From Escherichia coli (lineage in GTDB: Bacteria > Pseudomonadota > Gammaproteobacteria > Enterobacterales > Enterobacteriaceae), in the NCBI RefSeq assembly GCF_003334335.1, contig NZ_QOWQ01000024.1: 64,000 bases of DNA. One strand, written 5' to 3'. Below are positions 3,668 to 30,134 of the stretch, one piece after another (the stretch's first letter is position 1; each line of letters starts with the position of its first letter). The translations under genes and the position numbers were made by a program. The notes beneath the pieces were generated by a model. It saw nothing but the letters and a program-made list of their open reading frames with translations. It was not told the DNA's origin and did no database searches.

Positions 3668-3792
3668 AAAATAACAATAATATTTCGTTGTTTATTATTG
3701 GCTCAATCCGACAAATCCGATTGAGCCGCGCTACCTGCGCAACGAAGATACGACTTGTGCTGTTTGTTTGAACTTCTGGGGTCGTACCGTCC

Positions 3793-10472: not shown

Positions 10473-10514
10473 TTTTTTTTAACTCTCACGCTTACCCTGA
10501 ATATTCAGGGTAAG
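10473..10514 (+). terminator. T9 run followed by perfect 24-bp palindrome cttaccctgaat/attcagggtaag downstream of maeB
   Basis: Seen directly; atypical geometry for an intrinsic terminator (U-tract precedes the hairpin). Confidence 0.35.
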
Positions 10515-10764
10515 CAGTTTAGCTGCAATATATTAGTAAAGCTTATTACTGAGTTTGCGAATAATAAAAAAAAGCAGTCTATATAATATCTCGATATTAT
10601 TTTATTTATATTCATGCGTTGCATATGAAAGTTTATGCACCACAGCGAATATCTCTCCATTCTTAGTGATCTACCTCACCTTTTAAACGCGCTTGCCGAA
10701 TTTTGTTATTTACTCTGACGAAAAATTGTCACGATACACGAAAGTTTTTCACAGGCGGCGACTC

Positions 10765-22482: not shown

Positions 22483-23370
22483 ATGGATCAAAAACAGATT
22501 GAAGAAATTGTACGCAGCGTGATGGCGTCAATGGGACAAGCGGCCCCCGCGCCGTCAGAAGCAAAGTGCGCCACCACCAACTGTGCGGCACCGGTGACCT
22601 CGGAAAGCTGTGCGCTGGATTTAGGTTCCGCTGAAGCAAAAGCGTGGATTGGTGTTGAAAATCCGCATCGCGCAGACGTATTAACAGAACTGCGCCGCAG
22701 CACCGTGGCCCGCGTTTGTACCGGTCGTGCCGGTCCGCGTCCACGTACGCAGGCGCTGCTGCGTTTCCTGGCCGATCACTCTCGTTCGAAAGATACCGTA
22801 CTGAAAGAAGTGCCGGAAGAGTGGGTGAAAGCGCAGGGCTTGCTGGAAGTACGCTCTGAAATTAGCGACAAAAATCTCTACCTGACTCGCCCGGATATGG
22901 GCCGCCGCCTGTGTGCAGAAGCTGTTGAAGCGCTGAAAGCGCAGTGTGTTGCCAATCCGGACGTACAGGTCGTTATTTCTGATGGCCTGTCAACTGATGC
23001 GATCACCGTGAACTACGAAGAGATCCTGCCACCGCTGATGGCGGGCCTGAAACAGGCCGGGCTGAAAGTCGGTACACCATTCTTTGTTCGTTATGGTCGC
23101 GTGAAGATTGAAGATCAGATCGGTGAGATCCTCGGCGCGAAAGTAGTGATCCTGCTGGTGGGCGAACGTCCGGGGTTGGGTCAGTCAGAAAGCCTCTCCT
23201 GCTACGCCGTTTACTCGCCGCGTATGGCGACCACCGTTGAGGCCGATCGCACCTGTATCTCTAACATTCACCAGGGCGGCACGCCGCCGGTTGAAGCCGC
23301 AGCCGTCATTGTGGATTTGGCGAAACGTATGCTGGAGCAGAAAGCATCCGGCATCAACATGACCCGATAA
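22483..23370 (+). CDS. eutC: ethanolamine ammonia-lyase small subunit EutC
   Basis: 295 aa. Confidence 0.92.
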
Positions 23371-23379
23371 GGAGGCATC

Positions 23380-24039
23380 ATGCCAGCTTTAGATTTGATT
23401 CGACCGTCTGTCACCGCTATGCGGGTGATTGCCTCCGTTAACGCCGATTTTGCGCGTGAACTGAAATTGCCGCCGCATATTCGTAGCCTCGGTCTGATTT
23501 CTGCCGACTCCGATGACGTCACCTACATTGCCGCTGATGAAGCGACCAAGCAGGCGATGGTGGAAGTGGTGTATGGCCGCTCGCTATATGCGGGCGCTGC
23601 ACACGGCCCGTCACCGACTGCCGGTGAAGTGCTGATTATGCTTGGTGGGCCAAACCCGGCGGAAGTGCGTGCAGGTCTGGATGCGATGATTGCGCATATT
23701 GAAAATGGCGCAGCTTTCCAGTGGGCTAATGACGCGCAAGATACGGCATTCCTGGCACATGTAGTTTCGCGTACCGGTTCTTATCTCTCATCAACCGCCG
23801 GGATCACGCTTGGCGATCCGATGGCGTATCTGGTGGCACCGCCGCTGGAAGCGACCTATGGCATTGATGCAGCCCTGAAGTCTGCCGACGTACAGCTGGC
23901 GACCTATGTCCCGCCACCGTCTGAAACCAACTACTCGGCAGCATTTTTAACCGGTAGCCAGGCAGCGTGTAAAGCAGCCTGTAACGCCTTTACCGATGCA
24001 GTGCTGGAAATCGCGCGTAATCCAATCCAGCGTGCGTAA
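23380..24039 (+). CDS. eutL: BMC shell protein EutL (tandem BMC domain)
   Basis: 219 aa. Confidence 0.9.
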
Positions 24040-24051
24040 CGGAGGTTGCCG

Positions 24052-24552
24052 ATGATCAATGCACTGGGATTGCTGGAAGTGGACGGCATGGTCGCCGCGA
24101 TAGATGCAGCGGATGCCATGCTCAAAGCAGCTAACGTTCGTCTGCTCAGTCACGAAGTGCTTGACCCTGGTCGCTTAACGCTGGTGGTGGAAGGCGATCT
24201 GGCGGCGTGTCGTGCGGCGCTGGACGCAGGTTGTGCTGCCGCGATGCGTACCGGGCGTGTCATCAGCCGCAAGGAGATCGGTCGGCCAGACGATGACACC
24301 CAGTGGCTGGTTACTGGCTTTAACCGCCAGCCGAAGCAACCCGTAAGGGAACCCGACGCGCCAGTTATCGTCGCGGAATCTGCTGACGAGTTGTTGGCGC
24401 TGTTAACATCAGTACGTCAGGGAATGACGGCAGGAGAAGTGGCTGCCCACTTTGGCTGGCCGCTGGAAAAAGCCAGAAATGCGCTCGAACAGCTCTTTTC
24501 TGCCGGGACGTTACGTAAACGCAGTAGTCGTTATCGTCTCAAGCCCCATTAA
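24052..24552 (+). CDS. eutK: BMC shell protein EutK
   Basis: 166 aa from ATG 24052 (MINALGLLEVDGMVAAIDA...), SD ggagg 6 nt upstream; ORF track starts at upstream TTG 24046. Confidence 0.88.
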   Translation: MINALGLLEVDGMVAAIDAADAMLKAANVRLLSHEVLDPGRLTLVVEGDLAACRAALDAGCAAAMRTGRVISRKEIGRPDDDTQWLVTGFNRQPKQPVREPDAPVIVAESADELLALLTSVRQGMTAGEVAAHFGWPLEKARNALEQLFSAGTLRKRSSRYRLKPH

Positions 24553-24597
24553 CCTGTCGGAGGTGCCGGGTGTCCTACAACACCCGGCATTAACATC

Positions 24598-25650
24598 ATG
24601 AAAAAGACCCGTACAGCCAATTTGCACCATCTTTATCATGAACCCTTACCCGAAAACCTGAAGCTCACGCCGAAGGTCGAAGTGGATAATGTTCATCAAC
24701 GACAGACAACGGATGTCTATGAACATGCTTTAACGATTACCGCCTGGCAGCAGATTTACGATCAGCTGCATCCGGGCAAGTTTCATGGTGAATTTACGGA
24801 AATTCTACTCGATGATATTCAGGTTTTTCGTGAATACACCGGTCTGGCGCTGCGTCAGTCGTGCCTGGTCTGGCCGAACTCGTTCTGGTTTGGCATTCCG
24901 GCGACGCGCGGTGAGCAGGGATTTAACGGTTCGCAATGTCTGGGAAGCGCGGAAATCGCCACCCGCCCTGGTGGCACTGAATTTGAACTGAGCACGCCGG
25001 ATGATTACACGATCCTGGGCGTGGTGCTTTCTGAAGATGTCATCACCCGGCAGGCTAACTTTTTGCATAACCCGGATCGGGTATTACATATGTTGCGTAA
25101 CCAGTCGGCGCTGGAAGTGAAAGAGCAGCATAAAGCCGCGCTGTGGGGCTTTGTCCAACAGGCGCTGGCGACGTTTTGCGAGAATCCGGAAAATCTCCAT
25201 CAGCCTGCAGTGCGAAAAGTGCTGGGGGATAATTTGCTAATGGCGATGGGGGCCATGCTGGAAGAAGCGCAACCAATGGTGACGGCGGAAAGCATCAGTC
25301 ATCAGAGTTACCGTCGATTGCTTTCCCGCGCCCGTGAATATGTGCTGGAAAACATGTCCGAACCGGTGACGGTGCTGGATTTGTGTAATCAACTGCATGT
25401 CAGCCGCCGCACGCTACAAAACGCGTTTCACGCTATTTTAGGCATTGGCCCGAACGCGTGGCTGAAACGCATTCGCCTGAACGCCGTACGCCGCGAACTG
25501 ATAAGTCCGTGGTCGCAAAGTATGACGGTAAAAGACGCCGCCATGCAGTGGGGATTCTGGCATCTGGGGCAATTTGCCACGGATTACCAGCAGCTGTTTT
25601 CCGAGAAGCCGTCACTGACGCTGCATCAGCGGATGCGGGAGTGGGGGTGA
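24598..25650 (+). CDS. eutR: AraC-family transcriptional activator EutR
   Basis: 350 aa; C-terminal AraC HTH. Confidence 0.9.
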
Positions 25651-25655
25651 GGGAG

Positions 25656-26558
<903 letters not shown>

Positions 26559-29150: not shown

Positions 29151-30134
<984 letters not shown>

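Follow-up and report, generated by a model that had tools for sequence, protein, structure and literature searches.

A conserved hairpin at the eutK-eutR junction as a candidate bridge of a split ribosome-binding site in Escherichia coli and its relatives

The junction between eutK and eutR carries an RNA hairpin, here called H1, that has almost certainly been kept by selection as a structure, and comparative sequence evidence suggests that it probably acts as the bridge of a split, or non-contiguous, ribosome-binding site for eutR. The Shine-Dalgarno (SD) sequence lies on the 5' side of the hairpin and the start codon on its 3' side, and most likely the hairpin serves the SD, rather than substituting for it, by bringing the effective distance to the AUG down from 34 nt to about 8. 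An earlier note on the 64,000-nt window of Escherichia coli DNA analyzed here (contig NZ_QOWQ01000024.1 of assembly GCF_003334335.1) had proposed structured or coupled translation initiation for eutR, reasoning that the hairpin is followed directly by the gene with no obvious SD. The part concerning structured initiation gains support from covariation in H1 and from nucleotide-level constraint running from -45 to +63, but its premise of an absent SD does not hold, as a strong SD sits 5' of the hairpin.

The eutL-eutK-eutR-hemF region of the window is 99.9% identical to K-12 and to many other annotated E. coli genomes, which confirms the identities of eutK, eutR, and hemF (Table 1). The ATG at 24598 is the sole canonical in-frame start 3' of an in-frame eutK stop, and the N terminus of EutR is conserved from residue 1, including in distant orthologues. 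The longest open reading frame for eutK begins at TTG 24046, and the RefSeq start is ATG 24052, two codons downstream, which yields a protein of 166 aa. Residues 111-162 of this protein, encoded at about 24382-24537, match the EutK_C helix-turn-helix domain (PF16365, E = 8.6e-26), which has been described as "suggestive of nucleotide binding" and whose role is not known (PMC5821096). The conserved hairpin starts about 11-12 nt past the stop codon of this EutK_C-encoding gene. At the far end of the region, the eutR stop ends at 25650 on the + strand and the hemF stop at 25656 on the - strand; with the two genes convergent and only 5 nt between them, any terminator of either must sit inside the coding sequence of the other.

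Table 1. Features of the eutK-eutR junction, in window coordinates.
Feature	Position	Strand	Remarks
eutK stop codon TAA	24550..24552	+	ORF list, RefSeq annotation, junction alignments
Tentative closing helix H3, 5' strand UCGG	24557..24560	+	Predicted, low confidence; includes the first two G of the SD
Shine-Dalgarno sequence GGAGG	24559..24563	+	34 nt ahead of the eutR AUG along the linear sequence; abuts the hairpin
Hairpin H1	24564..24589	+	5' arm 24564-24573, loop 24574-24579, 3' arm 24580-24589
Unpaired A/U-rich spacer UUAACAUC	24590..24597	+	Joins hairpin and start codon; contains no SD
Predicted helix H2, 5' arm UCAUGAAAAAGA	24596..24607	+	Holds the start codon; predicted partner 24630-24641
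eutR CDS, AraC-type activator, 350 aa	24598..25650	+	ORF list, RefSeq annotation
Predicted helix H2, 3' arm UCUUUAUCAUGA	24630..24641	+	Codons 11-15, invariant; predicted pairing
Tentative closing helix H3, 3' strand CCGA	24650..24653	+	Predicted; codons 18-19

The hairpin was first noticed as gccgggtg-N8-cacccggc at 24565-24588, ending 9 nt ahead of the eutR ATG, and we find it exactly there, reading gccgggtg-tcctacaa-cacccggc. Its full extent exceeds that first description: 10 perfect Watson-Crick pairs (24564-24573 with 24580-24589) close a 6-nt loop, CCTACA, and the predicted fold extends the stem by two G.U pairs, 24562/24591 and 24563/24590. A 91-nt context folds at -26.3 kcal/mol (z = -2.9), and the longer stretch 24553-24660 folds at -34.5 kcal/mol (z = -4.9), with none of 200 shuffles folding as well. 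Strong stems are common in this DNA, however. When we counted stems of at least 9 bp with loops of 3-10 nt, the window gave 25 register hits against 2.45 in Markov-shuffled sequence, a roughly tenfold excess, and H1, as one of about ten such sites, is by itself unusual and not unique; it is conservation that argues against chance. Elsewhere in the window, the hairpins at 58265-58291 and 58421-58447 share the same stem sequence (AAAAAAGCGCC...) at a spacing of 156 nt, and further perfect stems of at least 9 bp occur at 3700-3727, 10490-10515, 29193-29215, 43395-43422, 46350-46377, 53861-53883, and 60300-60326. Several of the window's other stems of this length are terminator-like, with an A run ahead of the stem and hence a T run behind it.

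The stretch between the hairpin and the ATG does lack an SD, as had been stated: no anti-SD duplex that ends 12 nt or less from the AUG does better than -1.7 kcal/mol. To say that eutR has no obvious SD is nevertheless misleading, because a perfect GGAGG directly 5' of the stem had been overlooked. This motif pairs with the 16S 3' end at -10.8 kcal/mol, and over the 100 nt that precede the AUG nothing else makes a strong partner for the anti-SD. The same holds across the hairpin-bearing clade, where GGAGG is the only strong partner upstream of eutR (-9.5 to -10.8 kcal/mol, 32-36 nt from the AUG) and no anti-SD match better than -2.5 kcal/mol occurs within 12 nt of the AUG. Although non-coding, GGAG is invariant in all 31 hairpin-bearing junctions.

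To compare the junction across species, eutR loci were collected with one genome per species, and intermediate lineages were added by protein search and contig look-up, which together gave 31 distinct junctions representing eight or more genera. The order of elements is constant in Escherichia, Citrobacter, Klebsiella, Salmonella, Pseudocitrobacter, Pluralibacter, Phytobacter, Intestinirhabdus, and several further Enterobacteriaceae: the eutK stop, 6 nt, GGAG(G/A/C), the hairpin, 7-10 unpaired nt, and the start codon. Three short contigs in the collection (L057, L058, and L059; 411-457 nt) carry E. coli-like or Citrobacter-like eutR fragments with 94-99% identity; they are listed as Bacillus hominis and as part of a Prolixibacteraceae assembly, and most likely represent contamination of those assemblies.

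Across genera the sequence of the stem varies while its pairing is maintained. Pairs 6-11 from the base are seen as T-A, C-G, A-T, G-C, and G.U, and the added lineages bring compensatory changes even in pairs 1, 2, and 5. A MAFFT alignment of the junctions placed stem-length differences on one arm only, and the sequences were therefore realigned with a covariance model. In that alignment of 31 distinct sequences, 8 of the 11 H1 pairs change on both sides, which was matched by 1 of 500 shuffles, and the covariation score is 0.311 against 0.178 +/- 0.017 for the shuffles, none of which (0/500) reached it. Paired cells make up 88% of H1, compared with 36-61% when the partners are slid. Because the covariance model was fitted to the structure, its alignment leans towards it; an independent table anchored at the stem base, compiled as a cross-check, concurs, and an earlier sequence set gave the same outcome. 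In the hairpin-bearing junctions H1 folds at -15 to -24 kcal/mol by one estimate and at -17 to -25 kcal/mol by another. Within Escherichia the loops drift (CCUACA, CAUAUA, CGUACA, and UAUG) and the stems are held or compensated, and of 5391 E. coli records, 5366 match the 48-nt junction with an identity of 99% or more.

These patterns also bear on the kind of element that H1 is. A DNA palindrome or operator was considered and rejected, since the sequence varies while the pairing is held and a G-T on the + strand would be an A-C mismatch on the other. The G.U pairs, of which there are many, are possible on the + strand alone, which makes H1 an RNA structure of the eut transcript. A search of 23300-25800 for the sigma-70 promoter consensus found none, and Rfam gave no covariance-model match at E <= 1 over 23000-26500 on either strand.

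What the conserved junctions have in common is geometry. In the core clade the linear SD-to-AUG distance is 35-39 nt, the gap from GGAG to the stem base is 0-2 nt in every species, and the unpaired distance from SD to AUG is 7-12 nt over at least 30 junctions. Thus every core-clade species has only an SD that is too far away in linear sequence and none at a canonical distance, and the spacer hairpin leaves an effective spacing in the functional range (about 5-13 nt). The extreme case is Intestinirhabdus alba (L028 2410-2500), whose junction hairpin encloses a structured insertion of about 50 nt with a long inner hairpin of its own, the two together folding at -48 to -50 kcal/mol. Although this puts 86-87 nt between SD and AUG, the stem base is intact and the effective spacing is still 9-10 nt. 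Where orthologues have no such hairpin (Hafnia, Buttiauxella, Morganella, Brenneria, Dickeya, Pectobacterium, Lonsdalea, and Samsonia), an ordinary SD stands 3-9 nt ahead of the AUG, the best match by anti-SD energy being at 4-9 nt, and in Buttiauxella the whole eutK-eutR gap is only 18 nt. Selection on the hairpin among close relatives and a contiguous site in those that lack it are both as expected of a split site, with a mixed picture in the intermediate lineages.

Those intermediate lineages are the source of the most serious rival. Lineage L069 has the hairpin with its SD on the downstream side, an SD occurs both before and after the hairpin in Yokenella and L070, and Entomohabitans has GGAGA in a loop. 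We conclude, from comparison of the junctions, that the hairpin predates the arrangement with an upstream SD only, and the arrangements in L069, L070, and Yokenella indicate that bridging cannot be its sole possible role. H1 might instead be mainly an intercistronic mRNA element, such as a barrier to 3' exonucleases, a processing site, or a weak attenuator, that sets how much eutR mRNA is present compared with the eut genes upstream of it, with initiation independent of GGAGG and perhaps proceeding via the A-rich spacer. Intercistronic hairpins that give differential expression within operons are well established, as with the REP elements in malEFG. A GC-rich hairpin kept even where the SD is downstream or on both sides, with a stem as stable as this one, would suit such a role. 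It would leave unexplained the invariant GGAG, its adjacency to the stem base, the unpaired distance of 7-12 nt, and the nested insertion of I. alba, and we consider it unlikely on balance. An intrinsic terminator was rejected, as the tail AUUAACAUC has no U tract and no terminator was called at the site on either strand, and this too counts against the intercistronic alternative.

REP and BIME elements are dispersed, multi-copy repeats that form stabilizing hairpins between cistrons. Like them, H1 is a GC-rich stem-loop that stands between genes of the same operon; it differs in being single-copy, with a fixed relation to an SD and a start codon, whereas REP sequences are dispersed in many copies. 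Among 5390 E. coli genomes the median number of places with its sequence is one, which excludes REP/BIME as its class and counts against the intercistronic alternative in that form.

If H1 is read as the bridge of a split site, initiation can be pictured as follows. The SD, 6 nt past the eutK stop, would be too distant from the AUG in a linear mRNA, but 26 of the 34 intervening nucleotides would be folded as H1, leaving about 8 unpaired nucleotides between SD and AUG. A 30S subunit bound to the SD would then set the AUG in the P site with the hairpin left unmelted. The start codon itself would be held in a second, weaker and A/U-rich helix, H2, formed with codons 11-15, and as H2 would have to open for initiation, it probably holds EutR synthesis low. 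Use of the SD across a folded hairpin is something we infer from the conserved arrangement. In folding models the AUG lies fully in H2 and part of the SD is weakly paired, through the G.U extension of H1 and through the tentative H3, so the site may be a poor one by nature or may depend on an upstream ribosome or some other factor. Initiation might also proceed independently of an SD, helped by the A-rich spacer and A-rich first codons.

Experiments in Salmonella lend this reading indirect support: there a translational fusion, P2-eutR'-'lacZ, is expressed and is lowered by CsrA overproduction (PMC10433801). When mapped, the primers of that fusion span eutK codon 30 to eutR codon 35, and thus exclude the eutK start. 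Since CsrA binds GGA motifs, repression of the fusion would be expected if the GGA-containing SD is in use.

The need for an upstream ribosome is central to a second alternative, in which translation of eutR is mainly coupled to that of eutK: a ribosome terminating at the UAA would be retained by the SD, or would open nearby pairing, and would reinitiate at the AUG. Such coupling, the other half of what the earlier note had suggested, is compatible with a split site and differs only in where the ribosome comes from. The spacing UAA-N6-GGAG is fixed in all core-clade junctions, the gap always being 6 nt in the alignments, though the 6 nt themselves and the C-terminal residues of EutK differ; short spacers seldom gain indels, however, which makes fixed spacing weak evidence. 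With the hairpin beginning where it does, a terminating ribosome would presumably not need to melt it, and the tentative H3 would open under a ribosome at the eutK stop. The Salmonella fusion, expressed without the eutK start codon (PMC10433801), speaks against obligatory coupling, but its insert contains internal starts in the eutK frame and the fusion is therefore not decisive. As the main route to eutR, coupling seems to us rather improbable.

The CsrA effect also raises the question of a protein-binding operator. Under this alternative the hairpin and GGA together would be the putative target of CsrA, or of the orphan helix-turn-helix domain at the C terminus of EutK. That CsrA overproduction lowers P2-eutR'-'lacZ (PMC10433801) fits the former, and the latter is encoded immediately upstream and has no known role. 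EutK_C lies upstream at all hairpin-bearing loci, and the Hafnia-type locus that lacks it also lacks the hairpin, but this co-occurrence is confounded by phylogeny, and Buttiauxella has EutK_C and no comparable hairpin. Stem and loop sequences vary freely, unlike those of a sequence-specific operator. As for CsrA, the leader offers a single GGA, which is in the SD rather than in a loop and is the only one near the start, while CsrA usually bridges two; binding of CsrA to this RNA is putative. We regard an operator of either kind as a remote prospect.

A last alternative takes the SD at face value and gives it another target. In E. coli a mini-ORF of 7 codons (24570-24593, GUG-UCC-UAC-AAC-ACC-CGG-CAU-UAA) begins 6 nt past GGAGG, an ideal SD spacing, and ends with a UAA at 24591-24593, 4 nt ahead of the eutR AUG, so that eutR might be reached by reinitiation 4 nt downstream. 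Gene callers, too, choose starts inside the hairpin in several database entries. The GUG is buried, though, in a stem of about -20 kcal/mol, and the mini-ORF is absent in S. enterica, C. sedlakii, and one C. amalonaticus, with a differing start position, length, and stop elsewhere. A leader peptide or upstream ORF coupled to eutR was rejected on this lack of conservation in other genera, and we hold it to be extremely improbable that the mini-ORF is the true target of the SD.

The starts just mentioned belong to database EutR entries of 356-359 aa (P0001, P0013, and P0015; L066 1201-1222), in which the start of eutR is set inside the hairpin. The mis-called codons are a GTG in the 5' arm in a frameshifted E. 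coli variant and a TTG or ATG in the loop in Klebsiella-like lineages, each of which produces an N-terminal extension. That the true ATG has no adjacent SD is the likely reason for these calls.

Downstream of the AUG, a second layer of constraint is visible in the coding sequence. The minimum of synonymous diversity in eutR always falls within the first 21 codons, whether windows of 5, 10, or 20 codons are used (37 sequences), and the lowest value is 0.197 against 0.416 gene-wide (permutation P < 1e-5). Codons 11-15 (CAT CTT TAT CAT GAA) do not vary at any synonymous site among 32 distinct coding sequences; they form the lowest-diversity window of the gene and the only run of at least three invariant codons, 6.3% of the degenerate codons of eutR being invariant. 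Codons 2-3, which lie in the 5' arm of H2, are likewise invariant, and codons 17-21 show low synonymous diversity. The two arms of H2 pair at 11 of 12 positions in the predicted fold, and the predicted probability that the AUG is unpaired is about 0 in every hairpin-bearing species. Changes within the arms are wobble-compatible only, with no compensatory change among the compared sequences, and H2 is degraded in the abundant P0013 lineage, in P0031, and in Yokenella. On these grounds we rate H2, as a helix that pairs the AUG with codons 11-15, as probable rather than proven. It probably throttles initiation. As eutR comes last in an operon that is strongly induced and under positive feedback (PMC5821096), limiting its initiation through H2 would suit a regulator in that position. 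A role for H2 as an RNA thermometer was set aside for want of support in silico, the modeled probability of an unpaired AUG staying at about 0 from 20 to 45 C.

A short closing helix, H3, would join the SD region to codons 18-19 and make the whole a three-helix module. It is predicted in E. coli and several other genera with 4-7 bp and has no formal covariation support, and being too short and too weakly supported, it is not claimed here. A more far-reaching scheme can be drawn in which -45 to +63 is a compact, closed initiation module of H1, H2, and H3 that is read differently on two eutR transcripts: on the induced P1 mRNA a ribosome finishing eutK would open the module and hand over to the split site, whereas on the constitutive P2 mRNA it would stay largely closed, and the EutK C-terminal domain may bind the hairpin and so feed the supply of shell protein back onto synthesis of the activator. 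We offer this as speculation and think it improbable as a whole.

The second of these transcripts starts at P2, a weak constitutive promoter "preceding" eutR (PMC5821096, PMC10433801), for which we found no mapped start site in the searchable literature. Synonymous sites in the final 330 nt of eutK were searched for a constrained block that might mark it, with nothing convincing to show. Any transcript that began past the hairpin would be nearly leaderless, only 8 nt being left ahead of the ATG.

Split sites of this design are known from phage T4. At gene 25, which follows an intercistronic junction, a hairpin shortens the SD-AUG spacing from 27 to 11 nt (PMC3014915, PMC7297116; Malys & Nivinskas 2009), and at gene 38 from 22 to 5 nt (Gold 1988, via PMC3014915 and PMC7297116). 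Mutations that destabilize the hairpins reduce translation, and the arrangement is limited to close T-even phages (PMC3014915, PMC7297116). As described there, gene 25 and eutR share the order SD, stable hairpin, AUG at an intercistronic junction, with eutR going from 34 to about 8 nt, and in both the hairpin is found in close relatives and a contiguous site in distant ones. They differ in that gene 25 is a late gene of a phage and eutR a cellular regulator, and in that gene 25 has been shown by mutagenesis and DMS probing while eutR is known by comparative evidence only; the accessible text also mentions no second helix sequestering the gene 25 start codon, whereas eutR has the predicted H2. 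Gene 38 likewise has a hairpin between SD and AUG, with a shorter insert and in a phage gene, and the accounts cited give no phylogenetic covariation for it.

Among cellular mRNAs, E. coli thrS and rpmE show that the ribosome accommodates a stable stem-loop in its binding site (Sacerdot et al. 1998; PMC7297116), as would be the case at eutR. In those two genes, however, the hairpin parts an upstream A/U-rich enhancer from the SD, whereas at eutR it parts the SD from the AUG, and theirs is the operator for an autoregulatory protein, of which none is known for eutR (PMC7297116).

In the searchable literature, a scope that leaves out the primary eut papers of 1992 and 1999 (Roof & Roth 1992; Kofoid 1999), we found no description of eutR translation, of the eutK-eutR hairpin, or of a split site at this junction. 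The class of mechanism is already known; what is new here is a probable SD-hairpin-AUG split site, supported by covariation, in a cellular regulatory gene, together with a helix predicted to sequester the start codon. Proven sites of this kind are very few and, in the literature accessible to us, come from phage T4. Calculators of ribosome-binding-site strength that unfold spacer hairpins would underestimate the eutR site, and the hairpin is a concrete candidate ligand for the unexplained C-terminal domain of EutK. EutR and the lyase compete for adenosyl-cobalamin, and how much EutR each transcript yields matters. If the bridging role of H1 is true, a chromosomal regulatory gene of E. coli and Salmonella uses a device known from phage T4, and a post-transcriptional layer would be added to a well-studied positive-feedback circuit.
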